The notes under the pieces were generated by a model. It had not been told where the DNA came from. It saw only the letters and a list, made by a program, of their open reading frames with translations, and searched no databases. 39,773 nt of DNA, taken from the NCBI GenBank assembly GCA_016282215.1, contig JAEEKC010000111.1, forward strand, positions 1 to 39,773. Direction: 5' to 3'. A program made the position numbers and the translations under genes. This DNA is from Lachnospiraceae bacterium. GTDB lineage: Bacteria > Bacillota > Clostridia > Lachnospirales > Lachnospiraceae. Shown piece after piece: positions 9,916 to 39,440 of the stretch. Positions within the stretch are counted from its first letter, which is position 1, and every line of letters starts with the position of its first letter.

Positions 9916-10038
9916 ATTGATCTCCCGAAATTTCTCATTCTTTTATTGAATCCGGTTTTTACTACAGACAAAAATGTCTGCCCTGTGTCATCTGTTCCTA
10001 CTACAAATACACCCCTGGTCCCGATTTGGTTGCACGGA

Positions 10039-12765: not shown

Positions 12766-12790
12766 GTTTGTTTCCCCGAATTCATTATTT

Positions 12791-12831
12791 GTTTTTCGGC
12801 TTCGTATTTTTCATAACGGACTTTACACTAC
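12791..12831 (-). promoter_or_regulatory. Conserved ~40-nt leader element, copy A (upstream of the Zn-ribbon/EAL operon)
   Basis: Sense strand: GTAGTGTAAAGTCCGTTATGAAAAATACGAAGCCGAAAAAC, ending 25 nt before the ATG at 12765. It lies downstream of the candidate promoter at 12856..12885. Confidence 0.6.
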
Positions 12832-12855
12832 TTTTTTTGGAAGCCTATAAAGAAT

Positions 12856-12885
12856 ATTTTACCTATTCCAAGCCCCTGTTGTCAA
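12856..12885 (-). promoter_or_regulatory. Candidate sigma-A promoter TTGACA-N18-TAAAAT
   Basis: -35 TTGACA is the complement of 12880..12885 and -10 TAAAAT is the complement of 12856..12861. The predicted TSS is near 12849. Confidence 0.5.
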
Positions 12886-12925
12886 GGTTACCCAGTCTCT
12901 CAACCTCCGTATTTTCAATAGTTTT

Positions 12926-13510
12926 TCAAAGAGACTTTCTGTTGGCAAGGTACCCGATAACTGCACCGATGATCCCGCCGATGATATGAGACAGATTAGC
13001 GATATCATCCCTGACAAAGATTGCCTGAATGATCTGGCCGCCGATAAAGATCAGAGCGATCAGAATAAAGGTCACGGGGATCTGGCCTGCCTTAAACTCC
13101 GTAAAGGAAGTCATCAGGATAAATGCAAAGACCACACAACTGGCACCGCAGAGCATCACCTTCGGGAACAGGATGAAGTTCACCAGTCCCGTTGCAAATG
13201 CCGTGATCACCATCACCTGGATCAGCATTTTGCTGCCGTACTTTTCTTCCAGCATGGGACCGAGCAGCAGGATATAGGTGATATTCCCGAAAAAATGATC
13301 CCATCCGCTATGGCCGAAGATATGGGTAAAAAAACGAAGATAAGTCAGCGGCGATGCCAGGGAATACCGGTAGGTGGAAAACAAAAGCTGCGTTGCCGCC
13401 CCGCCGGTCAGTGCGCCGATCAGAAGCGATATCAGGCAGATCAGCGAAAAGACAAGGGTCACAGGTGCGTTAAATGTAATCTTCAGTTTCTGCATATTCA
13501 ATTTCTTCAT
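12926..13510 (-). CDS. Rhomboid-family intramembrane serine protease
   Basis: Six hydrophobic helices. HIFGHSGWDHFFGN matches the H..H...N motif, GASCVVFAF matches the GxS catalytic Ser motif, and SHIIGGIIGAVIGY matches the catalytic His in an H..G..G helix. Confidence 0.8.
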   Translation of the reverse strand: MKKLNMQKLKITFNAPVTLVFSLICLISLLIGALTGGAATQLLFSTYRYSLASPLTYLRFFTHIFGHSGWDHFFGNITYILLLGPMLEEKYGSKMLIQVMVITAFATGLVNFILFPKVMLCGASCVVFAFILMTSFTEFKAGQIPVTFILIALIFIGGQIIQAIFVRDDIANLSHIIGGIIGAVIGYLANRKSL

Positions 13511-13591
13511 GGATTTGCATTTCCTTATTGATCAGAATTATAAGCTTCGAATTTTAAAAATCCGCATGGTTTTGAATCGTTGCCATATAAG

Positions 13592-13628
13592 CAGGCAAAC
13601 CCCGCAGCCGCGCTGCGGGGTTTGCCTG
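13592..13628 (-). terminator. Strong hairpin terminator after hydA
   Basis: Sense strand: CAGGCAAACCCCGCAGC-GCG-GCTGCGGGGTTTGCCTG, a 17-bp perfect stem starting 9 nt after the hydA stop. The U-tract is poor (CTTATAT), so efficiency is uncertain. Confidence 0.65.
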
Positions 13629-13636
13629 AAAACTCA

Positions 13637-15415
13637 TCACTCTTCAATATCGTTGAAGCCCACCCGTCCTTCATAGGTGGTATGCAGCAGTTCATGGGCC
13701 TTGTGTCCGTTCGGCTCGCCGAGGAATTTCTCATACAGATCAAGGATCTGCGGATTGTTGTGGGATTGGCGGATGGTCTGTTTCTCATCTTCGGAGTACA
13801 GTGCCTGCGCCCTCTTTTCCTTGTAGGTATCGAGGATATCATCATCCTCATCAGGCAGGAAGAACTCTCTGACATAAGGCTGTCCGCCACCGTTGATGCA
13901 GCCGCCGGGACATCCCATGATCTCGATGAACTGGTATTTTGATTTTCCTTCCCGGATTTCATCAAGGAGCACCTTGGCCGCCTTCATACCTGAAGCGATG
14001 GCAACCCATACCTTTGTTCCTTCGATATCCACCTCTGCTTCCCTCAGTCCGCCGTCATGGCCGCGGACTTCCGTAAACTCGATGGGTTCTGCTTCTTTTC
14101 CGGACAGTTTGTAATAAGCGGTACGAAGCGCTGCTTCCATCACGCCGCCGGTGACACCAAAGATAACAGCCGCGCCGGTGTACTGTCCCATGATATCGCG
14201 GTCCCATTCCTCATCGGGAAGCATATTGTAAATGATACCACCGCGCTTGATCATGCGGGCCAGCTCTCTGGTGGTGATGACTGCATCCACATCAGGGATA
14301 CCATTCACTTTCAGCTGCTCTCTTTCCTTCTCAAACTTCTTGGCCGTACAAGGCATAACGGATACGACAAAGACATCCTCAGGTGCCACATCATGCTCTT
14401 TCGCCCAGTAACTCTTGATGATCGCACCCTGCATCTGATGGGGCGATTTGCAGGAAGACAGGTGATCTAAAAGATCGGAATAATTATACTCTGCGTAGTT
14501 GACCCAGCCGGGCGAACAGGAAGTGATCATGGGCAGGACACCGTCATTTTTCAGTCTGCCGATCAACTCGGTTGCCTCTTCCATAATGGTCAGGTCAGCG
14601 CCGAAGTTTACGTCATATACCCTGGAAAAACCAAGCCTTCTCATGGCTGCGATCATCTTGCCGGTTGTGGGGGTTCCGATCTTGTATCCGAATTCTTCAC
14701 CGATGGCTGCACGGACTGCAGGCGCTGCCTGTGCAATGACCACCTTGCCCTCTGCAAGGGCCTTATCTACTTTATCGATCTCGGAATGCTCCATCAGCGC
14801 GCCGGTAGGACAAACATTGACGCACTGGCCGCACTGGATGCAGGGCGAATCCGTAAAGGATCTGTCACCGGCAGGGGAAACAAAGGTTTCAAAGCCACGT
14901 CCCTCATAGCCGAGAATGCCGAGTCCATGGGCGTTCTTACATCTCTCGATACAGCGTCCGCAAAGGATACACTTGGAAGTATCACGCACCAGGGACGGTG
15001 CCACTTTATCCAAATGCACCTCGGAGTGTACGCCGCCGAACACATCTGCCCTGGCGCCGGTTACATTGGCTACGTGGAGCAGCTCGCACTTTCCGTTTTT
15101 ATCACACTGCTGGCAGAACTGGTTATGATCGGAAAGCAGAAGCTCTACGCTCATTCTTCTCGCTGCGGTAGCGGCCGGTGAGGAAATGGTGATCTCCATA
15201 CCGTCATTTACCGGATAGACGCAGCTGGCAACCAGGCCTCTTGCACCTTTCACTTCTACCAGACAGACGCGGCAGGAACCCCTGTTGCATTCCCCGTGGT
15301 TAAAATCGCAAAGGGAAGGGATCTCGTAACCGCATTTTCTTGCCGCCTCCAAAATGGTAAGGCCTTCTTCGACCTGATGGCGGACACCTTCGATCTTTAT
15401 ATTTACTAATGCCAT
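13637..15415 (-). CDS. hydA: [FeFe]-hydrogenase catalytic subunit (M3-type: 2Fe-2S, His-ligated 4Fe-4S, 2x 4Fe-4S ferredoxin, H-cluster domain)
   Basis: H-cluster motifs are present: ITSCSPGW (L1 variant), VMPCTAKKFE (L2), EIMGCPGGCINGGGQP (L3). The N-terminal part has CDFNHGECNRGSCRVC, HNQFCQQCDKNGKC, CILCGRCIERC and CIQCGQCVNVCP. The RBS is GGGAGGG. Confidence 0.93.
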   Translation of the reverse strand: MALVNIKIEGVRHQVEEGLTILEAARKCGYEIPSLCDFNHGECNRGSCRVCLVEVKGARGLVASCVYPVNDGMEITISSPAATAARRMSVELLLSDHNQFCQQCDKNGKCELLHVANVTGARADVFGGVHSEVHLDKVAPSLVRDTSKCILCGRCIERCKNAHGLGILGYEGRGFETFVSPAGDRSFTDSPCIQCGQCVNVCPTGALMEHSEIDKVDKALAEGKVVIAQAAPAVRAAIGEEFGYKIGTPTTGKMIAAMRRLGFSRVYDVNFGADLTIMEEATELIGRLKNDGVLPMITSCSPGWVNYAEYNYSDLLDHLSSCKSPHQMQGAIIKSYWAKEHDVAPEDVFVVSVMPCTAKKFEKEREQLKVNGIPDVDAVITTRELARMIKRGGIIYNMLPDEEWDRDIMGQYTGAAVIFGVTGGVMEAALRTAYYKLSGKEAEPIEFTEVRGHDGGLREAEVDIEGTKVWVAIASGMKAAKVLLDEIREGKSKYQFIEIMGCPGGCINGGGQPYVREFFLPDEDDDILDTYKEKRAQALYSEDEKQTIRQSHNNPQILDLYEKFLGEPNGHKAHELLHTTYEGRVGFNDIEE

Positions 15416-15429
15416 CTTCTATACCCTCC

Positions 15430-17319
15430 CTACTCTTTCGAAATTGCCATAAACTTACAGTTGCTCTTGCAAAGGCCGCACTTCGCGCATTTGGACTGAT
15501 CGATGGCAAAGGAAGCAAGCTTATGCCCCTCTGCGATATAATCCGTTCTGGAGATGCAGCCCACCGGACAGTTCCTTGCGCAAAGGCCGCAGCCGATGCA
15601 GACATCCGGATCGATCCTGTACTGCATCAAAGACTTGCAGACATGGGCCGGACAACGCTTGTCCACGATATGGGCAATGTACTCATCCTTGAAATGACGC
15701 AGGGTGGAGTTGACGGGATTGGCTGCCGTCTGGCCCAGCGCGCAAAGGGAGTTTTTCTGGATGGTCCTGCTCAGCTCTTCGAGGGCATCAAGATCTTCCA
15801 TGGTGCCCTTGCCTTCGGTGATCTTGGTCAGGATCTCCAGGATACGCTTTGTGCCGATCCTGCAGGGAGAGCATTTTCCGCAGGATTCATCACAGATGAA
15901 TTCCATATAGAATTTTGCCACGTCTACCATACAGTTGTCTTCGTCCATAACAATGGCGCCGCCGGATCCCATCATAGATCCCTTCTGTACCAGGTTATCA
16001 AAATCGATGGGCTCATCGAGGAAATCTTCCGTCAGACAGCCGCCGGACGGACCGCCGGTCTGGATCGCTTTGAATTTCTTGCCGCCCGGAATGCCGCCGC
16101 CGATGTCGTAAATCAGTTCGCGGAGGGTTGTTCCCATGGGGACCTCCACAAGGCCGACATTGTTGACTTTTCCGCCAAGTGCGAATACCTTGGTTCCCTT
16201 GGAGCCTTCGGTACCGACTTTGGCAAACTCAGCTGCACCTTCCCGCAGGATGTAAGGCACGCATGCTAAGGTCTCAACGTTATTAACAATGGTTGGCTTA
16301 TCCCACAGACCCTTCACAGCCGGGAAAGGAGGACGGGGACGTGGCATGCCGCGCTTACCTTCGATGGAATTTAAGAGTGCAGTCTCTTCGCCGCAGACAA
16401 AAGCACCCGCGCCAAGACGGATATGACAGTTAAAATCAAAACCGCTGCCTAAGATATTTGTGCCAAGCAGTCCTGCTTCCCTTGCATTGGTGATCGCCTT
16501 GCGAAGACGGGCCACTGCGATTGGGTATTCGGCACGTACATAGAAGTAACCCTCTTTTGCACCGATGGCATAGGCTGCGATCATCATGCCTTCGATCACG
16601 GCAATGGGATTTCCCTCCAAGATGGAACGATCCATGAAAGCACCCGGATCTCCTTCGTCGCCATTGCAGACCACATATTTTTCATCCCCTTCGCTTGCAA
16701 GGGCAAACATCCACTTACGGCCTGCCGGGAAGCCGCCGCCTCCGCGTCCGCGAAGACCGGAAAGAAGCACGGTATCCGCCACTTCCTTCGGTGTCATGGT
16801 CAGGGCTTTTTTCAGACCCTTAAACGCCCCCGCTCCGAGAGCCTCTTCGAGCTTCTCGGGATTGATGACACCACAGCCATGCAAAGCGATGCGGCGCTGC
16901 TTTTTGTAGAAATTGATATCGTCCTGTTTGGAAACCTTTTCACCGGAAACGGGATCCACATATAAAAGCCGCTGCACAACTTCACCCTTTGCAATATCGG
17001 TATCGATGATCTCTTCCACATCGTCTATGGAAACCATACGATACAGCGTATCTTCGGGATAGATCTTGACAAAAGGTCCCTGGGAACAGAAACCGAAACA
17101 GCCTGTCAGATTGACAGTGGCTTTTTCATTCAAACCTTTTTTGGCAAGAAGTTCTTTGAACTTCTCCATGATCTCTTTGGAATTACTCGAAAGGCATCCG
17201 GTTCCGCCGCACAGAACGATGTGGCGTTTTTCATCAGCGCCCGCGAGCTTGTCTTTCATGTTCTTTTCGCATTCTGCGATCCTTTTATCGAGCTCCTCTA
17301 CGGAAGTGATCTGACTCAT
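15430..17319 (-). CDS. hydB: NuoF-like flavoprotein subunit of bifurcating-type hydrogenase (FMN/NAD(H) binding, Fe-S)
   Basis: GLRGRGGGGFPAGRKW matches the FMN/NADH site. ESCGKCSPCR matches the N3-type 4Fe-4S cluster. The N-terminus has a thioredoxin-like 2Fe-2S domain and the C-terminus has CIGCGLCARNCP / CAKCGLCKSNC ferredoxin motifs. The start overlaps the hydC stop by 4 nt (ATGA). Confidence 0.93.
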   Translation of the reverse strand: MSQITSVEELDKRIAECEKNMKDKLAGADEKRHIVLCGGTGCLSSNSKEIMEKFKELLAKKGLNEKATVNLTGCFGFCSQGPFVKIYPEDTLYRMVSIDDVEEIIDTDIAKGEVVQRLLYVDPVSGEKVSKQDDINFYKKQRRIALHGCGVINPEKLEEALGAGAFKGLKKALTMTPKEVADTVLLSGLRGRGGGGFPAGRKWMFALASEGDEKYVVCNGDEGDPGAFMDRSILEGNPIAVIEGMMIAAYAIGAKEGYFYVRAEYPIAVARLRKAITNAREAGLLGTNILGSGFDFNCHIRLGAGAFVCGEETALLNSIEGKRGMPRPRPPFPAVKGLWDKPTIVNNVETLACVPYILREGAAEFAKVGTEGSKGTKVFALGGKVNNVGLVEVPMGTTLRELIYDIGGGIPGGKKFKAIQTGGPSGGCLTEDFLDEPIDFDNLVQKGSMMGSGGAIVMDEDNCMVDVAKFYMEFICDESCGKCSPCRIGTKRILEILTKITEGKGTMEDLDALEELSRTIQKNSLCALGQTAANPVNSTLRHFKDEYIAHIVDKRCPAHVCKSLMQYRIDPDVCIGCGLCARNCPVGCISRTDYIAEGHKLASFAIDQSKCAKCGLCKSNCKFMAISKE

Positions 17320-17801
17320 GCTGATGCCTCCTTTCTGTATGATTCAATGATATCTTCTACCTCTTCCACATCCACCTTCGGATATACCTTACCGTTAATG
17401 CTGACAGCAGGCGCGATACCGCAGGCACCGATGCAGCGAAGGGCATCTAAGGTAAACAGACCGTCCTTGGTGGTCTGGCCGGGTGCGATGCCGAGGATTT
17501 CGGAAAAACGGTCGATGACGATCTGGGCGCCCTTGACATAGCAGGCCGTTCCGAGGCAGCAGCCGATGACATATTTACCCTTGGGCTCTAATGAGAAAAA
17601 CGAATAGAAGGTAACCACCCCATAAATCTCAGCAACTGATATCCCCGTTCTTTGCGACACCACTTCCTGCACCTCGAGCGGGATATATCCGTATTCATTC
17701 TGGATATCGCTCAGGATCATCATCAGCGGCGTCTTTTCCTTTTTGTACCTGTCGCAGATGTCTTTGATCTGGCGGACAGCACTTTCACTTAGCCTTGCCA
17801 T
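17316..17801 (-). CDS. hydC: NuoE-like [2Fe-2S] subunit of bifurcating-type hydrogenase
   Basis: CLGTACYVKG ... CIGACGIAPAV is the thioredoxin-like 2Fe-2S signature. The protein is 161 aa. ATG at 17801 has a GGAGGAG RBS. Confidence 0.9.
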   Translation of the reverse strand: MARLSESAVRQIKDICDRYKKEKTPLMMILSDIQNEYGYIPLEVQEVVSQRTGISVAEIYGVVTFYSFFSLEPKGKYVIGCCLGTACYVKGAQIVIDRFSEILGIAPGQTTKDGLFTLDALRCIGACGIAPAVSINGKVYPKVDVEEVEDIIESYRKEASA

Positions 17802-17827
17802 ACTTGCTCCTCCTTAATTGATCAGTA

Positions 17828-17868
17828 GTTTTTCGTCCCACTCTATTCATATCGGACTTTACACTACC
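17828..17868 (-). promoter_or_regulatory. Conserved ~40-nt leader element, copy B (upstream of hydCBA)
   Basis: Sense strand: GGTAGTGTAAAGTCCGATATGAATAGAGTGGGACGAAAAAC, followed by TACTGATCAATTAAGGAGGAGCAAGTATG. Confidence 0.6.
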
Positions 17869-17949
17869 AATATTTTCCTCCATCTGACGCAAATTGTGCA
17901 GACAAGAACATTATACTCTATTTTGCGGGTTTATGGAACTGTTTTTTGC

Positions 17950-18000
17950 GGTAAAAAACGGCAAAAGACTGCCGGAGTGCATTCCGCACTCCGGCAGTCT
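17950..18000 (-). terminator. Rho-independent terminator after the Fn3 protein gene
   Basis: Sense strand: AGACTGCCGGAGTGC-GGAAT-GCACTCCGGCAGTCT (15-bp perfect stem, 17966..18000), followed by TTTTGCCGTTTTTT. Confidence 0.85.
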
Positions 18001-18096
18001 GTAACTTGTCATTCTTTCACGGCCTGCGACCGTATTTTTTCTTTCATGCTTGCCTTTATTAAGCATGCCAGCCTTACATAGACAAATCTGTAAGGA

Positions 18097-19953
18097 TTAA
18101 TGGATACCTACATAAACAAATCTGTAAGGATCATAGGTCTGGCCGTAGTTACTGATTCTGTTAAAGCCATACTTTGCAAAGACATTGACTACGGAGTTGT
18201 ACTCAACGGAACCCGGGGTACCTCCCACAACCTTGATCGTAACCGCAACGCCTTCTCTGTCCTCCTGATAGAGAGATCCGAAGTTGTAGCCGGAAACTTC
18301 CGTGATCTTCAGATTCACGCCTGCAACCGGAGTATTCTGAATTTCGTTGACGATCTGCTGTACAGTAGGCTGAACTCTCTTATTAACCAGGAAACTATCT
18401 GCCTTATTTACGCTGTATCCTGCAGATGTCTTTTTCGGATCTACAGACCATTTCGTATAAGCAACACCCTGCATTCTGGTGTCAGCCTCGGCCTGCGTGC
18501 CATATGCATAATAGTGATCCTGTCCGAATACCCTGTTGCATCTTTCCTGATAGTTCTCCGAAGGATAGCAGAAATAATTTGATGTCATCAGAACCGGATC
18601 ACAGGGATAAGACCATGTCTTCTTCTTTTTCTTATCGCTGAAGCATACGATCTGATAATAATATTTGGTTCCGTTATCCTGAACGATCTCTGTGGAGGTC
18701 ACATTTCCGCCATCCACGGTGGCGACTGTGGTAAAGCCCTTGTTTTCACTGGTAGAGCGCTGTACAAAGTATCCCTTTGCCCTCTTTACGCTGCTCCAGG
18801 TAAGTTTCACGACATTCGGCTTTTCGCAGACACAGCCTTCTTTTACAAAGTTTGTGGAAGCAAGCACGGTTGCTGCTGCAGTCGGCCACAGATCAAAATC
18901 GGAATAATAGCGTCTTTTGTTGATGACTTTATAGGCACGAACCCTGTACCAGTACTTCTGTCCGGGAACCGTATCCTTATCCACATATTTCCGCTTTTTC
19001 AGTTTTTTCATCTTCGGGCCGCCGGCGATCAGGGTACCCTTTTTGCTTTTCTTCTTGGAGCGGTACACTTCGTAGCCGTCCGCACCCGGAACCTTCACCC
19101 ATTTCAGGGTCACAAAATCGGAACCGTTCGCACTCAGATAATTGATCTCCGTTTTGTCAAGCATCGTCTTTGCCTTGACCGGTCCCGACAACTCGCTGAC
19201 GTATTCTTTTCCGTTATCATTGATATAGGCCTGCACCTTGAAATAATAGGTCTTTGCAAGGCTTAAGTTCTTGCCTGCAGCATCCTTTAAGATCATTGCA
19301 CCTGCCGCATCGGATGTCTCCAGCATTTTATACTTCCCGTTTTTCTTATTCGAAATGTAAACCTTGTAACCGGTTACCCCGCCGACCGGTTTCCAGGTCA
19401 ACAGAATCTTCTTGTAACTGAGCGGCTCTGACGTAAGGAACCATTCGTTTGCGGTCCTCGTAGGCTTAACCGTCGCAGTTTCGGCAGAAAAATCACCATA
19501 GTAATTCTTGCCATCCTGCTTGATAAACGCCCTAACCTTAAAACTGTAGGTAGAAGCGGTATTCAGTTCCTTCTGATCCGATGACGCACCCTTCGTAGAC
19601 ATCACATTCGCTTCCGTGGTATTCCCGCCGTCAAAAGTCCAATGGAGGACATATCCCTGGCCATTGGTATTGCTGTATACCTCGTAGCCGTCCGCACCGG
19701 ATACCGCAGCCCAGTTAAGCTTGATGGTATCTTCATCCACCACAGTCGCCAAAACGCTTGCGGGCTTGCCAACCGTCGGTGCAGCCGGCGTCGGTGTTTC
19801 ATTCTGGCTCACCGTCTCCGCTGTCACTGCCTCTTCTGCGTCAATAACCCCCTCCGGCTCAGCCTGGCCTGCAAAAGCCGCAGCCGGGCCTTCCAGAATC
19901 AGACTTGCCGACAGCAATAAAGCTGTCACTGATTGCAACACTCTCCTTTTCAC
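18097..19953 (-). CDS. Secreted protein with four Fn3-like modules and a C-terminal M15-like (probably inactive) domain
   Basis: The signal peptide is VKRRVLQSVTALLLSASLILEGPAAAFA (GTG start at 19953, GGAGG 9 nt upstream). Four modules carry L.W..V.GA.GYEVY...YYF(K/R)V.AY signatures. See the findings for the C-terminal domain. Confidence 0.8.
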   Translation of the reverse strand: MKRRVLQSVTALLLSASLILEGPAAAFAGQAEPEGVIDAEEAVTAETVSQNETPTPAAPTVGKPASVLATVVDEDTIKLNWAAVSGADGYEVYSNTNGQGYVLHWTFDGGNTTEANVMSTKGASSDQKELNTASTYSFKVRAFIKQDGKNYYGDFSAETATVKPTRTANEWFLTSEPLSYKKILLTWKPVGGVTGYKVYISNKKNGKYKMLETSDAAGAMILKDAAGKNLSLAKTYYFKVQAYINDNGKEYVSELSGPVKAKTMLDKTEINYLSANGSDFVTLKWVKVPGADGYEVYRSKKKSKKGTLIAGGPKMKKLKKRKYVDKDTVPGQKYWYRVRAYKVINKRRYYSDFDLWPTAAATVLASTNFVKEGCVCEKPNVVKLTWSSVKRAKGYFVQRSTSENKGFTTVATVDGGNVTSTEIVQDNGTKYYYQIVCFSDKKKKKTWSYPCDPVLMTSNYFCYPSENYQERCNRVFGQDHYYAYGTQAEADTRMQGVAYTKWSVDPKKTSAGYSVNKADSFLVNKRVQPTVQQIVNEIQNTPVAGVNLKITEVSGYNFGSLYQEDREGVAVTIKVVGGTPGSVEYNSVVNVFAKYGFNRISNYGQTYDPYRFVYVGIH

Positions 19954-19977
19954 CTTCTGATACCTCCTAATTAATTA

Positions 19978-20017
19978 GTTTTTCGGCTCGGTATTTTCAT
20001 ACCGGGCTCTGCACTAC
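19978..20017 (-). promoter_or_regulatory. Conserved leader element, copy C1 (proximal, upstream of the Fn3 gene)
   Basis: Sense strand: GTAGTGCAGAGCCCGGTATGAAAATACCGAGCCGAAAAAC, followed by TAATTAATTAGGAGGTATCAGAAGGTG. Confidence 0.6.
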
Positions 20018-20032
20018 TGAATTGATCAGTAG

Positions 20033-20071
20033 TTTTTTCGCTCAGTATTTCATACCGGGCTCTGCACTACC
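20033..20071 (-). promoter_or_regulatory. Conserved leader element, copy C2 (distal tandem copy, 55-nt period)
   Basis: Sense strand: GGTAGTGCAGAGCCCGGTATGAAATACTGAGCGAAAAAA, followed by CTACTGATCAATTCA and then directly by copy C1. Confidence 0.6.
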
Positions 20072-20160
20072 AAGTAATATAATAACTACTATCTATAAAA
20101 TTACACTATAACGTGCAATTTTTCAAGTACCAATGGAAACAGATTAAAAAGATAAACATG

Positions 20161-21099
20161 CTACGGATACCACTCATTCATCTTCGCTGTGGGGACCTCA
20201 AAATGCTGATAATCCTTTTTGGTTTTCCACTCCCCTCCCCACTCGAAACCATGCTGTATGAACAATTCGTAACAAAGGTCTCCTTTTACGATCTTGTAGG
20301 GAAAATCCGCCTCCCTGTCGGTATAGCCTTCGGCGCCTGCCGGCTCTACCACCCTTTCTCCGTCCACAGTCCTGACATAAGGATTATAGAAGGTATTGAT
20401 ATCCACCGCCAGGCCCATGCCGTGTTTGGATATCTTCGTCGTGCCGGAGATGAGGCGGTAATTAAACGAAGAGGAATTATTATCCTCCATGGATCTTTCA
20501 TCATCCGCATCATATTCGTCCACCAGGCGGATCTTTTCGATGGGGTAATCATTTTCATACAGGGTCCGCAGGATCGTAAGCACATCCTCTGCGATATGCA
20601 CGTTGACGATCATCTCCCCTTCATGCACCTTTCCGTCGATATCTTTATGCAGCACATGGAGATATCGAAGATCCTCTCTCGGCAGGGTGCAGTCATCTTT
20701 ATAAGACTTTCCCTGTATGCGGGTGAATATCTCGTCAGAGATCCCGGTGATGTAGAACTGCGATTCTACAGAGATTTCCGAATCTGCAGAATCTACATTT
20801 ATATTCATTTCCCCATTTATTCCTTCTTCGATTTCCGGGCCTGTTTCTGTACCCGCCGGTTCTGTCTGCATGGGAGCCGCCGTTTCCATATTTTTCATAT
20901 GTTCATCATCCGTCTGTATTTCCGGCAGTTTCTCACTGCTCCTTTCATCAGGCTTTCCGCCGGATCTGCTTTCGATTTGCGATCCGGTTTCGTTTTCAGA
21001 TCCCTGCAGGCCGCAGCCTGTCCAAAGAAGAGACATACCAATGAAGATAAGCAGTGCCCCTATCTTTATTCCCTTTTCTGCTTTTGTTTTGATTTTCAT
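20161..21099 (-). CDS. M15-family zinc metallopeptidase lipoprotein (cell-wall peptidase type)
   Basis: The lipobox is LLWTG-C. SKHGMGLAVDIN matches S.H..G.A.D, and HGFEWGGEW...DYQHFEV matches D..H. The start overlaps the stop of the 946-aa ORF by 4 nt (ATGA). Confidence 0.85.
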   Translation of the reverse strand: MKIKTKAEKGIKIGALLIFIGMSLLWTGCGLQGSENETGSQIESRSGGKPDERSSEKLPEIQTDDEHMKNMETAAPMQTEPAGTETGPEIEEGINGEMNINVDSADSEISVESQFYITGISDEIFTRIQGKSYKDDCTLPREDLRYLHVLHKDIDGKVHEGEMIVNVHIAEDVLTILRTLYENDYPIEKIRLVDEYDADDERSMEDNNSSSFNYRLISGTTKISKHGMGLAVDINTFYNPYVRTVDGERVVEPAGAEGYTDREADFPYKIVKGDLCYELFIQHGFEWGGEWKTKKDYQHFEVPTAKMNEWYP

Positions 21100-23936
21100 T
21101 TCGGTTTCGGTCCGGTTTTCTTTATTCCTTTTGTCTCCGTCTTCTGTCCGGAAGGCTGCTCATTTTCTTCTTTTACCTGCCCTTCAGGCTTTGTCTTTTC
21201 CTTCGGCTGCTCTTTTTTCGGTTCCTCTTTCTTCGGCTCTTCTTTTACGTCGCCCTGTTTCTGCGCATTCAGGGCTTCCTTTTTGCGCGCTCTTTCCGCC
21301 TGTCTTTTCTGATAGGTCTTTTCTCTTTCCTGCTGGATACGCCGCTCCTTCTCATCCTCCGATTTGCGCCAGTCCCTGATCTTCTTATCCGTTTTTTCCA
21401 CATATTCTTTCATGCTTTTGGTGTCGGAAAGCATTTCCTTAACGGTCTCCGGATGTTTGCGAAGGTGGGCAAGCTGGTCTTTCTGATTTTTCTGTTTCCG
21501 CCAGGATTTCAGATAGTCGTTCACATATTCCCCCGGTTTATACGCATCGCCCGCGCGGTTATTTTTCTCCGGCAGTTTGCCCACCTGATCTATAAGCGTT
21601 ACCGTATACGCCATGGCATAGGCGGTTTCGATGGTCACCTCGTCTTTGTAGACGCCGTTTTCCAGGTTCCGCTTTACCAAACGGCATTTATCCAGATAGA
21701 CATCATCACATTTTTCAATCTGCTCTGTCACATCCCCCATCATCAGCGCCTTTAAGGATCCGACGCCCACGTTATCCAGGAATTTTTTATAGGCAGGCAC
21801 TTTCGGAAGGTTTTTGTCCACCAGCTCCTTCAGTTCTTCCTCCTTTGCGCCCACAGACCGGAAGATGGATGCCAGGCGAAAGGCAAAAATATCCCTGACT
21901 GCGTCCGCTGCCTGCTTCTTTTGTTCCTCATTCATTTTCGTATAAGAGGCATACTGCATCGAAAGGGTTGAAACGCCTGTGATGGCGCCGCTGATATACG
22001 TTTGCATGACCGGCCCGGACGTCTTTTTGAGCTGCTCAAACGCGTCAAGCTGGATATTGACCTGTTTTAAGATCTGCGTTTCACTCATCTTCGATAGTTC
22101 ATAGTCATCAGTCATCAGACCACCGTCCAGGGTGCCATGCAGAACAAACTGCTTTTTCGCTTTCGGATCATAAGTATAGGTGATATTGGCAAAAGCGGTC
22201 CCATCCAGTATGGAAGAGAGTTTTTGCTCAAATACCTGTTTCGAACTAAATTCCACGGAACTCATATGATCGATCACACCGACATAAATACCTCTTCCGA
22301 TGGCTCCTTCATCATAGGTAAACCAGTCCGCAAAGGGTTTATCCTTGCACGCGACTGCCTTTTTTGCAAACATCGAGCGCAGATGATTGACCGTAAAACT
22401 GTTGAAAAGAACAGTCTTTTGTGCAAGATCCGAAAAACGGAAATCCAGGTCCCTGAGGCCCTCCGCTACTCTTTGGATATTGACCGCAAACTGATCGAGA
22501 TATCCGCGCATATTGCCCACCTTGTCCAGGTAATCCTGGGGGGTCTTCAGATCGGGAAAATCCTTTTTACCGGCCTTAAGCATATCCTCCGGCATTCTGC
22601 CCATTTCCTGCCAGACATCCATCAGGGTAAAGCCCAGCATACCCGCCCTGGAAAATTCCGGCGAAAAGATATAATCCGGATCGGAAAAGTCCACCTTGCC
22701 CAGCATCTTGCCGATCCTGTCAATGGATGCCATATATCCTTTATGCATGGTCTCGGCCAGCCACTTTGCATTCTCCGGTTTTTTTCCGCTGGTTTTTAAG
22801 ACCAGTGTATGGAAAAGATCCGCCTTTTCTTTCTGCAGTTTGGCCGGATCCATGATATCCTCTTCCGTATACAGATAGTTCCCTTTTTCATCCTTCATCG
22901 CCATCAGGGCGACGGTGGTGATGCTGTGTCCCGCGGTTCTCGCCACGGAAATGCCATAAGGATGCGGGTGCTTGAAAAGGCTTTCGTCCGTGTAACGGTC
23001 CCCGTAAAAAGCCTTTCTGTTTTCCTTGGCTCCCGGTCCCAAATCATACTTGTTATAGACATTATTCAGCCAGTTTGCGTACTTTTCCTTTTCCGCCTTG
23101 ACATAGGCTGCCGCCTGCCGGGGCGCTGTCTTGATCTCAAAACGTCGTTGTTCGGTCAGCTGATAGGTCCGCTCCACCGAAGCGCGGTTGATGGCGCAGA
23201 TGCGCCTTACTTCCGTCACCGCCGCAAAGCGCTCCTTTGCATACGTTGTGTCCGTCTTTCCTTTTTTTCCGTCCAGATAGACCTGGGTAAGCCTGTCAAA
23301 CTCTTCGGCGCTTCGCAGGTAGGAAAGCATGGTTTCCTTTTCCTGCTTTCGCAGCTTTCCTGCCTTTTCGGGATCCGTTTCCTGCAACGAATTTGCCCGG
23401 TTTTTCTCCATTTTAGACGCTAACTTTTTCAGGTTTTTCAGTTCCCCCATCAGGGCGCGAAACTGCGGAGAACTTCCGCCCTTATACCAGTGATCCTTGC
23501 TGTCAAGGAGTGCATAAAGCCTGGCGATATCGTCCGCATTCTTTTTCAGGTCCACCCGGTTAAAGCTGCGGACCTCATAGGCCTTGTCTGCCGGGGTGGG
23601 TTCCTGCGAAGCAGAAACGCCGGCGGATGCTCCCTGTCCCTCCAGCTGATTCTTTGTTCTGTATGCCTGAAGCTCCTCCGGCACCGGGATGTCCTGCCCA
23701 AGCTGCTTTTTGGTCATAAGTTCCATATGCCAGGCATAGTAATAGGCCTCTGTTTTTTTGTCCTCAGCGGCCTTGCTGTTTTTCACAAGCTCCCACATCT
23801 GCGCCGCCTTGAGAAGGTCCGCTCTCTGCTTCGCCTCGTCCACAACTGCATGGTTTTCGTGCAGTTCCTCTTCCGGGGGGATGGGATTCAGTTCCGGCTG
23901 TGCATATTCATCTTCCCTGTATTCAGACTCTTTCAT
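21096..23936 (-). CDS. 946-aa K/E-rich protein of unknown function (no signal peptide or TM segment seen), translationally coupled to the M15 lipoprotein
   Basis: Uninterrupted 946-codon ORF. ATG at 23936 has an AAGGAG RBS. The C-terminal tail is EEPKKEEPKKEQPKEKTKPEG...GPKPK. I recognise no domain. Confidence 0.7.
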   Translation of the reverse strand: MKESEYREDEYAQPELNPIPPEEELHENHAVVDEAKQRADLLKAAQMWELVKNSKAAEDKKTEAYYYAWHMELMTKKQLGQDIPVPEELQAYRTKNQLEGQGASAGVSASQEPTPADKAYEVRSFNRVDLKKNADDIARLYALLDSKDHWYKGGSSPQFRALMGELKNLKKLASKMEKNRANSLQETDPEKAGKLRKQEKETMLSYLRSAEEFDRLTQVYLDGKKGKTDTTYAKERFAAVTEVRRICAINRASVERTYQLTEQRRFEIKTAPRQAAAYVKAEKEKYANWLNNVYNKYDLGPGAKENRKAFYGDRYTDESLFKHPHPYGISVARTAGHSITTVALMAMKDEKGNYLYTEEDIMDPAKLQKEKADLFHTLVLKTSGKKPENAKWLAETMHKGYMASIDRIGKMLGKVDFSDPDYIFSPEFSRAGMLGFTLMDVWQEMGRMPEDMLKAGKKDFPDLKTPQDYLDKVGNMRGYLDQFAVNIQRVAEGLRDLDFRFSDLAQKTVLFNSFTVNHLRSMFAKKAVACKDKPFADWFTYDEGAIGRGIYVGVIDHMSSVEFSSKQVFEQKLSSILDGTAFANITYTYDPKAKKQFVLHGTLDGGLMTDDYELSKMSETQILKQVNIQLDAFEQLKKTSGPVMQTYISGAITGVSTLSMQYASYTKMNEEQKKQAADAVRDIFAFRLASIFRSVGAKEEELKELVDKNLPKVPAYKKFLDNVGVGSLKALMMGDVTEQIEKCDDVYLDKCRLVKRNLENGVYKDEVTIETAYAMAYTVTLIDQVGKLPEKNNRAGDAYKPGEYVNDYLKSWRKQKNQKDQLAHLRKHPETVKEMLSDTKSMKEYVEKTDKKIRDWRKSEDEKERRIQQEREKTYQKRQAERARKKEALNAQKQGDVKEEPKKEEPKKEQPKEKTKPEGQVKEENEQPSGQKTETKGIKKTGPKPK

Positions 23937-23956
23937 AAGTGTGCTCCTTTTTCATT

Positions 23957-23997
23957 CGTGCTCCGCTTCGGTTTTTCATACCGGACTTTACACTACC
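23957..23997 (-). promoter_or_regulatory. Conserved ~40-nt leader element, copy D (upstream of the 946-aa ORF)
   Basis: Sense strand: GGTAGTGTAAAGTCCGGTATGAAAAACCGAAGCGGAGCACG, ending 20 nt before the ATG at 23936. Confidence 0.6.
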
Positions 23998-26854: not shown

Positions 26855-26912
26855 AACTGATCCCCTAAACTGAATACTGATTCATCACCGCATTTTCCCA
26901 AACGCTTATTTG

Positions 26913-29627: not shown

Positions 29628-29716
29628 GAAAGCGCCTCGTTTTTTTCGTTCTTATCCCCCGACCGGAACCGGGAACTTTTGCGCCGCCCTGCATAATCCC
29701 CAATGCAGTCGTTCTC

Positions 29717-37198: not shown

Positions 37199-38791
37199 TT
37201 ATTTTTTCTTGTGACAGCACTCCGGTAATGAAGCCGACCAGGGAAGGAGTTCTTCGCAGAAACGTCGATCTGTATCTTCCATGTGGTTCGGTATTACCGT
37301 AAGAACGTGCTTAATGTATTCGTACACATTCAGGTTGTTTGCTTTTGCTGTTTCAACTAGACTGTATATGATGGAACTGGCCTTGGCTCCGGATATCGTA
37401 TCGATCATGACAAAGTTTTTCTTTCCGATACAGAATCCACGAATAGCCCGCTCGGCACAGTTATTATCAAGCGGTACATCGGGATCATCCAGGAACACCC
37501 TAAGGTATTTTTCCTGGCTTAGTGAATAGGCAATTCCTTTCGCGGTCTTGTTCTTTGCAGATGTACGGTGTTCGTTTTTATGACACCACGCAAAGTAGGC
37601 CTCAACAAGAGGTTTGACCGTAAGCTGTCGCTTAAGCAGACGTTCTTCCGGTGGAAGGCCCTTCAGGGCGTTGTCCGCATTATATATTGCCTGTATCATG
37701 GCCAGGGCTTTGTATGCGAGGCTTCCTTTTTGAGCTCCCTTCGCCATTGCTTTCAGGGCTTCGTCATATCGTCGCCTTGCGTGCGCATAGCAGCCGGCTA
37801 TCTTTAGATCCTCGCGTTCTTTTTCAAGCTTGTGATAGACTTGATAGCCATCTGTTACACATACCCCGGAGAAATTCCTGAGGAACTCTCTCGGGTGAGA
37901 CGCGTTCCGCGTCTTTTGGTACTCATACAGGACAATCGGGTGTTCGTGATTCATTCCGGTCCGGTACACCCACATATAACTTTTGGATCCGGCCGGCCGG
38001 TCATCCTTGTTTACCAGCACCGGTGTTTCGTCTGCCTGCAGTACATGGTAATCATACATCTTTTCATGCAGGTAGTCATACAGGATTGACAAATACCTTT
38101 CGGCGCTTGCTATGGTCCACCTGGCCATTTCCTGCCTTGTGATATCAAGGCCATCGGACTCGAACTGTTTCTCGATCCGATAGAACGGAACGGCATTTAC
38201 ATACTTGGCATTTATGATGCCTGCTTCCAGCGAAGGAGAGACAAGACTGTTTCTCATAAGGTATGCCGGAAATTTCGCTTTTACCATGCGTTCACTCTTT
38301 TTGCCGGAGTAGACGCCGACATGTATCTCTTCAAGGCCCACCTTGGCGGGTACGAAATAATAACGTTTTATCACTTCGTCAGGAAGTGTTTTATATCCTT
38401 CATCACCAAACTCGTCATTCAGTTCTTCCTCTGACATGTAGTACTTAGTGGTTTCAACTACTTCGAGTTTGGACAGATCGGCTTCTTTCTTTCCCTGGGG
38501 CCGTTTGGCTTTCAAAGGTGCGGGGGCTTCTTTGGCTTCCTCGTCCTTTACAGCCTCAGCCTCGTTGAAGAATGCGATGTTTTCATCATTCTCAAAGAAT
38601 GAGATTTGGCCATCAATCTCGAAGGATTCGGAAGAGCGCCCAAACCGGTGGCGTTTTGCATCAACGACTTCTTCCATGAACTTTTGGAGTTTGTCATCAA
38701 GCTTTTTGTATTCTTCCTGCTGGGAAAGAATGATGTTGACCAGATCAGCGTGATCGAGTTTATTCAATTGCTCAGCGGATAAATGTTTCAT
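37199..38791 (-). CDS. tnpC: IS66-family transposase
   Basis: LQADETPVLV...SYMWVYRTG...VLYEYQKTR...FSGVCVTDGYQVY...AGCYAHARRRY is the characteristic IS66 DDE core. The protein is 530 aa. Confidence 0.93.
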   Translation of the reverse strand: MKHLSAEQLNKLDHADLVNIILSQQEEYKKLDDKLQKFMEEVVDAKRHRFGRSSESFEIDGQISFFENDENIAFFNEAEAVKDEEAKEAPAPLKAKRPQGKKEADLSKLEVVETTKYYMSEEELNDEFGDEGYKTLPDEVIKRYYFVPAKVGLEEIHVGVYSGKKSERMVKAKFPAYLMRNSLVSPSLEAGIINAKYVNAVPFYRIEKQFESDGLDITRQEMARWTIASAERYLSILYDYLHEKMYDYHVLQADETPVLVNKDDRPAGSKSYMWVYRTGMNHEHPIVLYEYQKTRNASHPREFLRNFSGVCVTDGYQVYHKLEKEREDLKIAGCYAHARRRYDEALKAMAKGAQKGSLAYKALAMIQAIYNADNALKGLPPEERLLKRQLTVKPLVEAYFAWCHKNEHRTSAKNKTAKGIAYSLSQEKYLRVFLDDPDVPLDNNCAERAIRGFCIGKKNFVMIDTISGAKASSIIYSLVETAKANNLNVYEYIKHVLTVIPNHMEDTDRRFCEELLPWSASLPECCHKKK

Positions 38792-39077: not shown

Positions 39078-39440
39078 TTAAGCAATCTCCGGCGGTGCCT
39101 TGATTTCAGCTATCGGATGTTTGGCCACAACGTCGAAGCCCTCCATAAGGAGACGGTATTGATCATGGGTTATCTGCATTGCTTCATCTGCAGACCTCGG
39201 CCAGCTGAACGCTCCGATTTCAAGGCGTTTATACAGGAGAAGGAATCCATCTCCTTCCCAGAGAAGGCCTTTGATACGATCCGTCCTTCTGCCGCAGAAA
39301 AGAAAAAGGACATTCTTTTCAAAGGGATCCAGCTTATATTTGAACTTTACGATCGATGCAAGACCATCTATTCCTTGGCGAAGGTCGGTGTAACCTACTG
39401 CAAGTACGATTTTGGAAAAACCCGAAGCATCATTTAACAT
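39078..39440 (-). CDS. tnpB: IS66 Orf2 accessory protein
   Basis: TDLRQGIDGLASIV...VLFLFCGRRTDRIKGLLWEGDGFLLLYKRLE.G.F.WP is the hallmark IS66 TnpB sequence. Confidence 0.93.
   Translation of the reverse strand: MLNDASGFSKIVLAVGYTDLRQGIDGLASIVKFKYKLDPFEKNVLFLFCGRRTDRIKGLLWEGDGFLLLYKRLEIGAFSWPRSADEAMQITHDQYRLLMEGFDVVAKHPIAEIKAPPEIA

Follow-up and report, generated by a model that had tools for sequence, protein, structure and literature searches.

The window, by which we mean the whole 39,773-nt stretch of DNA analysed, carries a Zn-ribbon gene with a GGDEF/EAL gene, the genes for HydC (2Fe-2S), HydB and HydA, a gene for an Fn3 protein, and a 946-aa orphan gene with an M15 peptidase gene, all correctly called in a first-pass annotation of the sequence. 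That annotation had also reported five copies of the pattern GTAGTGYARAGYCCG-N-TATGAA; all five are found, on the minus strand like the genes concerned, and the distance of 20-26 nt given between element and start codon is borne out by measured gaps of 25, 26, 24 and 20 nt. With up to two mismatches allowed, a search of the window for GTAGTGYARAGYCCG returns five matches, all exact, against a chance expectation of 0.22 +/- 0.44; five copies were reached in none of 100 shuffles. The 3' motif CGAAAAAC occurs in copies A, B, C1 and C2 and is missing from copy D.

All copies, intact or decayed, lie on the minus strand. Copy A (12774..12831; profile score 48.4 bits) consists of one unit, from which the 3' strand of the outer stem is gone, and a tail reaching the Shine-Dalgarno sequence (SD) of the Zn-ribbon/GGDEF-EAL operon. 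Copy B (17809..17868; 61.2 bits) is likewise a single unit, followed by the tail CUGAUCAAUUA and the SD of hydC. The Fn3 gene, with its GTG start at 19953, is preceded by a two-unit tandem array of the distal copy C2 (20019..20071; 51.8 bits) and the proximal copy C1 (19963..20018; 46.3 bits), the latter including the SD. In copy D (23944..23997; 38.5 bits), which includes the SD of the 946-aa gene, the single unit diverges in its 3' half; the copy has a near-identical ortholog in the metagenome-assembled genome (MAG) RGIG7926 (L004, 7338). The same MAG has an intact unit (L004, 1701) at its ortholog of the 904-aa hybrid histidine kinase gene, which in the window is preceded by a degenerate copy (29635..29688). 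Probable decayed units were recognised by eye in the leader of a 985-aa gene (9922..9965; internally deleted, GTAGT..CCGGAT..AATGAGAAATTTCGGGAG, under the profile thresholds), in a rhomboid-gene leader (13522..13567; retaining ..TTCGAAGC..CTGATCAATAAGGA) and in the 58-nt gap ahead of a 909-aa kinase-DegV gene, which the unit occupies (26861..26899).

Family-wide hits uphold the description of a sense-oriented 5'-leader element at a set distance from the start codon. A profile search of 479 kb of fetched DNA gave 111 hits, 86 of them distinct; of the 111, 72 immediately precede an SD with its start codon, 24 are the more distal units of arrays and 3 match by chance. With the chance matches set aside, not one of the 108 copies is antisense to the next gene. 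The unit, of ~48-55 nt, reads rGGUAGUGUAAAG-UCCGRUAUGAAAAU-(variable, about 12 nt)-AAACUAC-UGAUMAAUU and lies immediately 5' of the SD, its start being 67-73 nt from the start codon for 57 of 66 distinct genes (mode 69). Copies are mutually ~85% identical, and no conserved ORF is present within the unit. Arrays comprise one to at least three units, single units being the rule, and ~17 of 75 arrays fill intercistronic space, a co-oriented ORF stopping no more than 40 nt before the array starts. Among the genes behind the element are pheS, dnaG, nrdR, argG, clpB, proA, glpK, glgB, aqpZ and a hydro-lyase gene, as well as hydC, EAL, kinase and transporter genes. The copy number per genome, on the order of 10^2, is an extrapolation from biased loci. 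The 5' block GUAGUGUAAAGUCCGRUAUGAAAA is conserved far better than a mere hairpin requires and could be a binding site; its conservation is in part ascertainment, because both scans by which copies were collected required the block.

When 185,579 species genomes were scanned for the exact pattern, only two rumen Lachnospiraceae MAGs matched, and a metagenome scan yielded 47 loci, almost all from rumen assemblies, while IMG/VR, PLSDB and INPHARED gave no hits. In other Lachnospiraceae, hydC orthologs (83-96% amino acid identity) have ordinary leaders, and ~130 kb of those genomes are free of copies. The range of the element is a narrow clade within the Lachnospiraceae that comprises a small set of uncultured rumen bacteria. 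Within this clade, array units are gained and lost, copies are quickly replaced or decay, and subfamilies are common to unlinked genes. Identity between the window and L088 is 97.6% across 6.4 kb, and even between such strains hydC and the Fn3 gene vary as to the presence of the 5' block: the inner part of the copy B counterpart is replaced in L088, and the Fn3 array has three diverged units there versus two in the window. Similarly, the array in L060 is one unit longer than that of its ortholog in L006, where only decayed units are retained. One subfamily (GAAAAAUACGAAGYCGAAAAAC-WAAUAAUGAAU) stands ahead of four genes, among them clpB and the Zn-ribbon gene, another (GCCGAGCGWGAUACURCU) ahead of three different genes. 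Homology breaks at the SD between L040 and L051 and between the window and L087. The L040/L051 junction could, for its part, be an assembly chimera.

The units are transcribed as part of a 5' UTR or intercistronic spacer, in agreement with the leader character first ascribed to them. An intrinsic terminator of the Fn3 gene (17953..18000, minus strand) marks the upstream boundary of the hydC transcription unit ahead of copy B, and a TATAAT box ~40 nt upstream of the copy (17910..17915, minus strand) is likely the -10 element of the hydC promoter. RNA contigs from four metatranscriptomes, assembled at low depth and carrying no strand information, cover the whole of copy B and reach 5-20 nt beyond it, to upstream ends at 17873-17888, which places the copy inside the hydC 5' UTR; none falls within 17889-18007, between these ends and the upstream terminator. 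Copy A lies under RNA contigs that include at least 50 nt of upstream sequence. The promoter proposed for this copy, TTGACA-N18-TAAAAT, does score 11/12 in a scan; as a transcription start it is not established, because the RNA contigs run through the site.

In predicted folds, many copies may adopt an outer stem enclosing an inner hairpin, with weak support from covariation. The outer stem described for copies B and C2, GUAGU/ACUAC, is indeed there; it is partial in C1, and A and D have lost it. Significant folding is seen for copy B (z = -3.1), with an 8-bp outer stem and an inner helix GUCC/GGAC, and for the C2+C1 pair (z = -4.6), whose best fold is an inter-unit hairpin ACUACUGA/UCAGUAGU; copies A (+0.8) and D (-0.1) fold no better than shuffles, and the mean z-score over 86 copies is -2.0. 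The variable 3' part is enriched for complements of GUCCGR (mean run 3.49 vs 2.99 +/- 0.08 shuffled), and the replaced L088 copy retains the architecture with GCAGU/ACUGC and CCCCCG/CGGGGG. The covariation check that had been suggested returned no compensatory pairs inside the tight family and no RNAalifold consensus pairs. The predicted folds leave the SD unsequestered and contain no terminator.

How, then, is this element to be understood? Turnover, tandem arrays, shared subfamilies and a narrow clade are the signature of a dispersed repeat family, and the best reading is that of a genomic repeat family more than a one-pathway switch. [quoted passage not shown] The regulon of a few operons originally envisaged does not accord with at least 66 different downstream genes, core housekeeping genes included, nor with the variable arrays, the decay, the shared subfamilies and the narrow clade. 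Of the REP/MITE-like repeat that had been named as the opposing outcome, the dispersed-repeat signature is found and random orientation is absent. Such a repeat would spread by copy-and-paste with the SD region as its 3' anchor, because inter-locus homology breaks exactly at the SD; the copying mechanism is unproven, because neither transposition machinery nor terminal inverted repeats longer than 5 nt nor target-site duplications were found for the element. Slippage or unequal crossing-over would lengthen and shorten the arrays. Intact units would fold on themselves in the mRNA, the GUAGU/ACUAC outer stem surrounding an inner hairpin often capped by GAAA, and neither the A/U-rich tail nor the SD would be drawn into pairing, so that insertion would be tolerated. 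At most, the unit might insulate or stabilise the translation-initiation region constitutively, and not respond to signals as a switch would.

We consider it rather unlikely that the element is instead a post-transcriptional regulon element, whose single-stranded 5' block and loop would be recognised by a lineage-specific RNA-binding protein or sRNA. Placed 10-12 nt upstream of the SD, this factor would jointly raise or lower translation or stability of the element-bearing mRNAs, and the repeat-like spread would be the route of regulon assembly, as in Neisseria REP2/CREN, the precedent for a dispersed gene-start repeat that defines a co-regulated set (PMC3184786). The strictly sense orientation, the very tight distance to the start codon and the presence of the element in the transcript all fit, as does a 24-nt block that is near-invariant while the would-be pairing segment varies, and that is kept in copies A and D despite the loss of the outer stem. 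However, the gene set, with pheS, dnaG, argG and clpB, is extremely heterogeneous, strains as close as the window and L088 disagree on the block at two genes, orthologous copies decay while the gene stays, and the block's conservation is inflated by the scans. Neither a candidate factor nor an antisense partner emerged, all scan hits judged genuine being sense copies before genes. Co-option of the repeat into a regulon by a trans-acting factor is possible.

Mobilisation as single-stranded DNA by a Y1/HUH transposase of RAYT or IS200/IS605 type appears improbable. Here GTAG and the hairpin would be recognition features and the gene-start position a target-sequence preference; the unit opens with GTAG followed by a hairpin, as REPs do, the hairpin potential is equally valid for DNA, and terminal inverted repeats and target duplications are absent. 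Yet orientation tracks the gene, L057 and L065 each having two opposite-strand copies, each before its own gene; the direct tandem arrays at 5' ends are unlike REPs, which lie mostly at gene 3' ends and often in inverted pairs, and the window contains no Y1 transposase. We see very little chance of a DNA-level signal, be it an operator or a promoter for an alternative sigma factor. The latter rests on a resemblance of TAAAGUCC...GCCGAUAA to the sigma-28/SigD consensus TAAA-N15-GCCGATAT, many copies having TAAAGTCC and, ~16 nt on, GCCGATAA or CCGAAAAA, and some intergenic copies lacking an obvious sigma-A promoter. Compared with this consensus, the spacer has 5 nt too many, and no part of the unit is less conserved than the would-be -10; a start behind it would leave almost no leader ahead of the SD, and distal array members have no gene directly behind them. 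The activator or alternative-sigma site that the annotation had offered is unlikely also in that transcription begins upstream, the RNA contigs of four runs including the entire copy B with 5-20 nt upstream and those at copy A reaching at least 50 nt beyond it, and in that many copies lie within operons. Hardly credible, finally, is control of translation by a small riboswitch or by another RNA that senses a ligand or temperature; the annotation's argument against a metabolite riboswitch is upheld. The element's 5' UTR position adjoining the SD, occasional tandem arrangement and compact stem-hairpin fold with an A-rich tail would suit one, but Rfam holds no matching family even at E <= 10, which agrees with the earlier failure to name a motif; the downstream genes have no common theme, covariation is absent, there is no expression platform (SD free in the predicted folds, no terminator), and ~85% inter-copy identity in a single clade is unlike ancient aptamers.

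The dispersed leader repeat that we favour has parallels in other bacteria. MIRUs 'insert themselves at start codons' and affect expression only minimally (PMC12548453), and they resemble the rumen element as units of 40-100 bp, often in short tandem arrays of variable copy number, that number tens per genome or more, occupy intergenic spacers inside operons, are oriented and co-transcribed with the flanking genes and are missing at orthologous sites of relatives (PMC12548453; PMC3184786). However, the two share no sequence similarity and differ in phylum and base composition; MIRUs contain a small ORF, coupled at -4 to the downstream start, which its stop codon overlaps, and their insertions are flanked by tetranucleotide direct repeats, whereas the rumen element has no conserved ORF, lies 5' of a normal SD and shows no such repeats. 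Neisseria REP2 (CREN) and the Borrelia IR-A/IR-B elements, which carry the ribosome-binding site immediately upstream of ORFs, are likewise dispersed, sense-oriented and without terminal inverted repeats, and have internal stem-loops tied to that site (PMC3184786). REP2 differs in its length of 120-150 bp, its ~26 copies and its own promoter, RBS and ATG, against a rumen unit of ~50 nt in which no promoter is seen; the rumen homology breaks 5' of the SD and its units form tandem arrays, and REP2 genes are co-induced upon host-cell contact, while co-regulation is not known for the rumen element. By analogy, the element would best be read as a Firmicute functional counterpart of MIRUs and REP2, gene-start repeats that preserve downstream expression.

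Other repeats are less similar. REP/BIME elements with RAYT transposases are also short, abundant extragenic repeats with a hairpin, 5' of which REPs have a conserved GTAG, the letters with which the rumen unit begins; they are, however, GC-rich perfect palindromes, found for the most part downstream of genes or in the gaps of convergent gene pairs and frequently as inverted pairs, whereas the rumen element is AT-rich, with a weak composite fold, and strictly sense, in direct arrays at gene 5' ends. MITEs (such as Correia, RUP and ERIC/IRU) are non-coding dispersed repeats as well, often co-transcribed and able to alter mRNA stability or expression, but they have terminal inverted repeats, target-site duplications and both orientations, none of which is seen in the rumen element. 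Type III antitoxin RNAs (ToxI/CptI), of which the cptIN family is present in Lachnospiraceae, are likewise transcribed just ahead of a gene, as tandem direct repeats of ~35-45 nt; their arrays precede one toxin gene (ToxN/CptN) with a terminator in between, whereas the rumen element precedes dozens of unrelated housekeeping genes, mostly as single units.

What kind of element stands in front of such different genes in the window, and how did it come to be there? The leaders belong to a real repeat family, of which neither Rfam 15 nor the literature searched gives an earlier description. The five copies named in the first-pass annotation are correct and not a product of chance: the 15-mer GTAGTGYARAGYCCG occurs five times in the window, always exactly and always on the minus strand, which carries all genes from ~1.7 to 38.8 kb, against 0.22 occurrences in dinucleotide shuffles. 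Read on that strand, copy A is GTAGTGTAAAGTCCGTTATGAAAAATACGAAGCCGAAAAAC, copy B GTAGTGTAAAGTCCGATATGAATAGAGTGGGACGAAAAAC and copy D GTAGTGTAAAGTCCGGTATGAAAAACCGAAGCGGAGCAC, while the tandem pair formed by the distal unit C2 and the proximal unit C1 shares the reading GTAGTGCAGAGCCCGGTATGAAA(A)TAC(T/C)GAGC(C)GAAAAAAC. Pfam agrees with the gene identities assigned earlier, namely a double-Zn-ribbon protein and then a 7TM-GGDEF-EAL protein after copy A, HydC (2Fe-2S thioredoxin-like) and then HydB and HydA after copy B, an Fn3 protein after C2/C1, and a 946-aa orphan and then an M15 peptidase after copy D. The earlier failure to match the element to any named RNA motif is borne out by the Rfam scan, which gave no gathering-score match in the window, nothing even at E <= 10 at the elements, and no match at any element of 57 related loci.

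The full unit is longer than the ~40 nt first ascribed to it and reads r-GGTAGTGTAAAG-TCCGRTATGAAAAT-(~12 variable nt)-AAACTAC-TGATMAATT; directly 3' of it comes AGGAGG, with the start codon 5-10 nt further on. When the first copies were made into a profile, it yielded 111 matches, 86 of them distinct, in 479 kb of collected DNA, a biased set of loci. In 72 of the 111 a Shine-Dalgarno sequence (SD) and an ORF start come next, and in 24 a further unit, the repeat period being 48-55 nt and the arrays two or three units long; three are chance matches without the 3' half, and among the other 12 (not all checked singly) are some that lie at or close to a contig end and some that precede decayed units or short ORFs. 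The co-orientation with the gene proposed from the window extends to all fetched loci, where no non-chance copy lies antisense to the next gene and random orientation was not seen. From unit start to start codon the distance is 67-73 nt in 57 of 66 distinct genes (mode 69). In about 17 of 75 arrays a co-oriented ORF has its stop codon no more than 40 nt before the first unit, so that the repeat there amounts to nearly the entire intercistronic spacer. Absolute sense orientation and a fixed position relative to the ribosome-binding site are the unusual traits of the family. Units are preceded by WWG, no target-site duplication is seen at their flanks, and upstream of many apparently single copies older, decayed units are recognisable. 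The conserved AUG-AAA does not qualify as the start of a leader peptide or uORF: it lacks an SD, and its reading frame is broken by indels and ends at differing places, so that neither frame nor stop is conserved. A mini-ORF MVV* from an upstream ATG was rejected since this ATG precedes only 12 of 81 copies, as were three-frame stop codons as a defining trait, which are found in only 44 of 86 units.

A species-level scan with the pattern GTAGTGNANAGNCCGNTATGAA, covering 185,579 species with one genome each, returned 15 loci, all in two rumen Lachnospiraceae MAGs, 13 in RGIG7926 (water buffalo) and two in Tb.RUG.200. One RGIG7926 locus (L004, position 7338) is the ortholog of copy D, and its flanks match too. 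The 47 loci of a metagenome scan with TAGTGNAAAGNCCGNTATGAAA come almost throughout from rumen assemblies, and the window sequence itself is present in DNA and RNA runs of sheep, bovine and other gut metagenomes. On ten other Lachnospiraceae contigs, hydC orthologs of 83-96% amino-acid identity have ordinary leaders, and the ~130 kb around them contain no copy; the family is thus confined to a narrow clade. As clean empty sites these orthologs were rejected, their intergenic regions being too diverged and synteny lost, and a search of DNA-run contigs for presence/absence polymorphism returned only cross-mapping from other copies. As a separate observation, the hydCBA operon is highly conserved between the window and loci L075-L084 (83-96% HydC identity), yet nearly all the genomes compared have a different gene upstream of it; hydCBA has moved or been exchanged among Lachnospiraceae. 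Carriage of the repeat by phage or plasmid was rejected: looser or equal patterns gave chance coding matches or none in IMG/VR, and BLAST of the consensus found nothing among PLSDB plasmids and INPHARED phages.

Between close relatives the family turns over. Over 6.4 kb, GCA_024694845.1 (L088) and the window agree at 97.6% identity; before the Fn3 gene the window has two units and L088 three diverged ones, copy B is replaced in L088, and copy A is identical across six strains. At a related locus (L060) three units precede a gene; its RGIG7926 ortholog (L006, 87% identical) is one unit short and shows nothing but decayed remains. Repeated AAAACTAA(A)T(G/C)A ends bound the extra unit, the pattern expected of slippage or unequal crossing-over. 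Unit variants are moreover common to unlinked loci and different genomes: one with an extra-A loop and a AAUAAUGAAU tail stands before the Zn-ribbon gene, clpB and two others, and another, GCCGAGCGWGAUACURCU, before three different genes, which indicates copying between loci and not convergence. In two contig pairs the near-identity (99.6% and 97%) breaks off exactly at the SD, so that the segment which moves or recombines must end, on its 3' side, just ahead of the SD. In one of them, 562 nt of upstream flank, unit and SD (L040 1592-2153 and L051 5827-6388, 99.6%) are followed by a PadR-family gene in L040 and an ABC ATPase gene in L051; behind this lies a recombination event at the unit or SD, or else a chimeric assembly. 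The window and locus L087 share the SD and hydC, with unrelated sequence before. At hydC the repeat causes artefacts of assembly and annotation: contigs of several public assemblies are broken at or within copy B (L085 1-100, L086 1-60), and hydC is called through the unit, giving products of 195 (P0001) and 207 aa instead of 161.

Decay is also visible within the window, where a degenerate unit at 29635-29688 precedes a hybrid kinase gene; its RGIG7926 counterpart is intact. Further remnants, judged by eye, lie in three more leaders, those of the 985-aa gene, the rhomboid gene and the 909-aa kinase gene, so that most free-standing leaders from 7 to 30 kb are element-derived. Downstream genes across the collected loci include, by NCBIfam, those for PheS, DnaG, NrdR, ArgG, ClpB, ProA, GlpK, GlgB, aquaporin Z and an Fe-S hydro-lyase beta subunit and, judged by N-termini, CarB-like, ProB-like, PadR, ABC ATPase, MATE, prepilin peptidase-like and secreted proteins, to which the window adds hydrogenase, c-di-GMP and kinase genes. 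This is neither one pathway nor a recognisable stress regulon. Rfam finds none of the T-box or riboswitch leaders expected upstream of pheS, argG and proA, whose presence would have placed the unit 3' of a known leader RNA.

Evidence on transcription comes from assembled (Logan) RNA contigs and is supportive rather than conclusive, because the contigs are strandless and their depth is low (~3). Contigs from four independent metatranscriptomes take in copy B (17821-17868) completely, along with the hydC 5' end, and stop at 17873, 17877, 17878 and 17888. In eight RNA runs no contig maps within 17889-18007, where a TATAAT box (17915-17910) and, at 17953-18000, the Fn3 gene's strong terminator are located. 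At copy A they reach 50-60 nt further upstream, through the site of the sigma-A promoter claimed there; TTGACA-N18-TAAAAT is indeed predicted, but the RNA contigs run through it. As the contigs cover both units and upstream sequence, they support the first-pass reading as a leader element, with the units part of the mRNA and transcription starting upstream of them.

In many copies the strands (G)GUAGU/ACUAC(U) can pair as an outer stem that encloses an inner helix of the invariant GUCCGR, whose partner site varies by subfamily: CGGA immediately after a UAU-GAAA-AUA hairpin, AUGCCG, a distal YCGGG, or GGC or GAC. The folding z-score of 86 copies averages -2.0; against the tool's own shuffles, copy B reaches -3.1 and the C2+C1 pair -4.6, and the values of copies A (+0.8) and D (-0.1), both without the 3' strand of the outer stem, are non-significant. 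The variable region is rich in complements of the 5' strand, with a mean run of 3.49 against 2.99 +/- 0.08 in shuffles and a slightly lower 3.32 +/- 0.04 in partner-swapped controls, of which 0/200 reach the observed value when kinship of the copies is ignored. Covariation, named earlier as a check on the hairpin, gave it no support: in the close family no pair is altered on both sides, mutual information yields neighbouring-column artefacts and no long-range signal, and RNAalifold returns zero consensus pairs. A covariance model (P1 + P2) recovers the close family and misses the diverged L088 copies, at 6-8 bits. The best single structural evidence is the synteny with L088, where between flanks near-identical to the window copy B is replaced by a hydC leader reading GCAGU-CGAA-CCCCCG-GUUUUAUCAAUA-CGGGGG-AGAAA-ACUGC-UGAUCAA (z -2.2). 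Here the UAUGAAAA motif is absent and the inner helix wholly different, and the outer stem is kept via a change of U-A to C-G. In the predicted folds the SD is unpaired, and we conclude that a self-contained stem-hairpin beside an unpaired SD is a common trait of intact units, although as a selected feature it is not proven.

How does the family compare with described ones? Sigma-28/SigD promoters have the geometry TAAA-N15-GCCGATAT with a transcription start downstream, and a promoter of this type, as one form of the alternative-sigma option of the first-pass annotation, was rejected: with N20 the spacer is 5 nt too long, transcripts take in the whole unit, and the -10-like part of such a reading is the most variable segment. 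A riboswitch was rejected, as the annotation had anticipated for a metabolite-binding one, since there are no compensatory pairs and no alifold consensus, the SD is unpaired and the units precede unrelated genes. For hammerhead and other ribozymes, box C/D, K-turn, lambda boxB/nut, RfaH ops and type III antitoxins, core nucleotides or gene context are at odds with the unit, and the Rfam models for these families gave no match. REP/RAYT elements carry a GTAG tetranucleotide 5' of a palindrome; the unit begins with GTAG, but 8 nt before an inner hairpin that is itself imperfect and variable, the REP/BIME layout is absent, and the window contains no RAYT/Y1 transposase gene. MITEs are marked by terminal inverted repeats, target-site duplication and insertion in either orientation; the unit has only a 5-6-nt GUAGU/ACUAC complement, no target-site duplication and invariable sense orientation. 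MIRUs are tandem units of 40-100 bp in operon spacers (PMC12548453; PMC3184786), and the family resembles them, by description, in its 48-55-nt units, arrays of one to at least three, lack of antisense copies, unit number varying between relatives, and the ~17 of 75 arrays that are intercistronic. However, MIRUs have an internal ORF overlapping the flanking stop and start codons, whereas here the frame is broken and the gene's own SD lies 5-10 nt before the start, and their host is Mycobacterium rather than rumen Lachnospiraceae. Neisseria REP2 and Borrelia IR-A/B lie directly upstream of ORFs with promoter, RBS and ATG, and REP2 marks a co-induced gene set (PMC3184786). The unit shares with REP2/CREN the sense position directly upstream of ORFs and the association with an RBS, but no sigma-70-like site was found within units, RNA contigs start upstream of copy B, and many copies are intra-operonic. 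It is an analogue of MIRU and REP2 and a member of neither, the MIRU mini-ORF and the REP2 promoter being absent.

Taken together, the narrow distribution, ~85% copy identity, subfamilies, arrays, fast turnover and decay, and unrestricted gene set favour a dispersed repeat family over an operator or aptamer that evolved as such. The diversity of genes from which a regulon-type cis element had been proposed is real, but it speaks for such a repeat. Co-transcription of the unit and expansion and contraction of arrays are observed; beyond these, in the preferred mechanism, recombination or template switching would carry units from gene to gene with the universally shared SD as anchor, which would on its own explain orientation and position. 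Self-folding of the unit would leave the SD accessible, so that insertions are tolerated, perhaps with a mild insulating or stabilising effect on the initiation region. The main rival is a co-opted target of a trans-acting factor, as the conserved 5' block, GUAGUGUAAAGUCCGRUAUGAAAA, would suggest; strain-level turnover argues against it, and so does the ascertainment bias of the scans. In its boldest form, a portable translation-control module, a clade-specific RNA-binding protein or sRNA would read the block beside the SD, and SD-anchored copying would have wired at least 100 genes, housekeeping ones included, into one circuit. We consider this improbable; if true, such a genome-wide post-transcriptional circuit would have no described counterpart in Firmicutes, and any trans-acting partner would define a new global translational regulon. 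If the dispersed repeat is the correct reading, an abundant group of rumen Lachnospiraceae has remade a good part of its gene leaders from one module placed exactly at the RBS. It would be a second independent example, after MIRUs, of gene-start repeats that spare expression, by the different solution of sitting 5' of an intact SD without a coupled mini-ORF. It would also account for contig breaks and over-extended gene calls in rumen metagenome assemblies, and would provide natural insulated 5' leaders, testable as Clostridia expression parts, and VNTR-like markers for strain typing in the clade.

Several features of the window and related loci deserve mention in their own right. The 985-aa (6958-9915, minus strand) and 946-aa (21096-23936, minus strand) ORFs, both with element-derived leaders, have no Pfam match whatever, and the 150-aa Zn-ribbon protein has just four homologs in 5.8 billion sequences. 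The 909-aa hybrid histidine kinase (24125-26854, minus strand; HisKA-HATPase-receiver) bears a C-terminal DegV (fatty-acid-binding) domain, an unusual fusion, and adjoins a second, Hpt-bearing hybrid kinase at 26913-29627. An IS66-family transposase (37199-38791, minus strand) with two small upstream ORFs (39078-39708, minus strand) shows the usual IS66 accessory-gene layout, and this element is without a repeat copy. At the C2/C1 junction (20013-20033, plus strand) the 3' outer-stem strand of one unit pairs with the 5' strand of the next in a perfect 8-bp hairpin, ACUACUGA-UCAAU-UCAGUAGU, which on the plus strand is followed by a T run and scores terminator-like; tandem arrays may thus fold unlike single units, and antisense transcription could be stopped there. 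Finally, at L006 7149-7389 and L068 1897-2140 (minus strand), two or three units are succeeded by a variant unit (GGTAGTGTAAAGTGAGTTATGAAAAAAC...), past which ~250 nt of conserved, apparently non-coding sequence, 88% identical between both and without an Rfam match, could represent an unrecognised RNA or leader.
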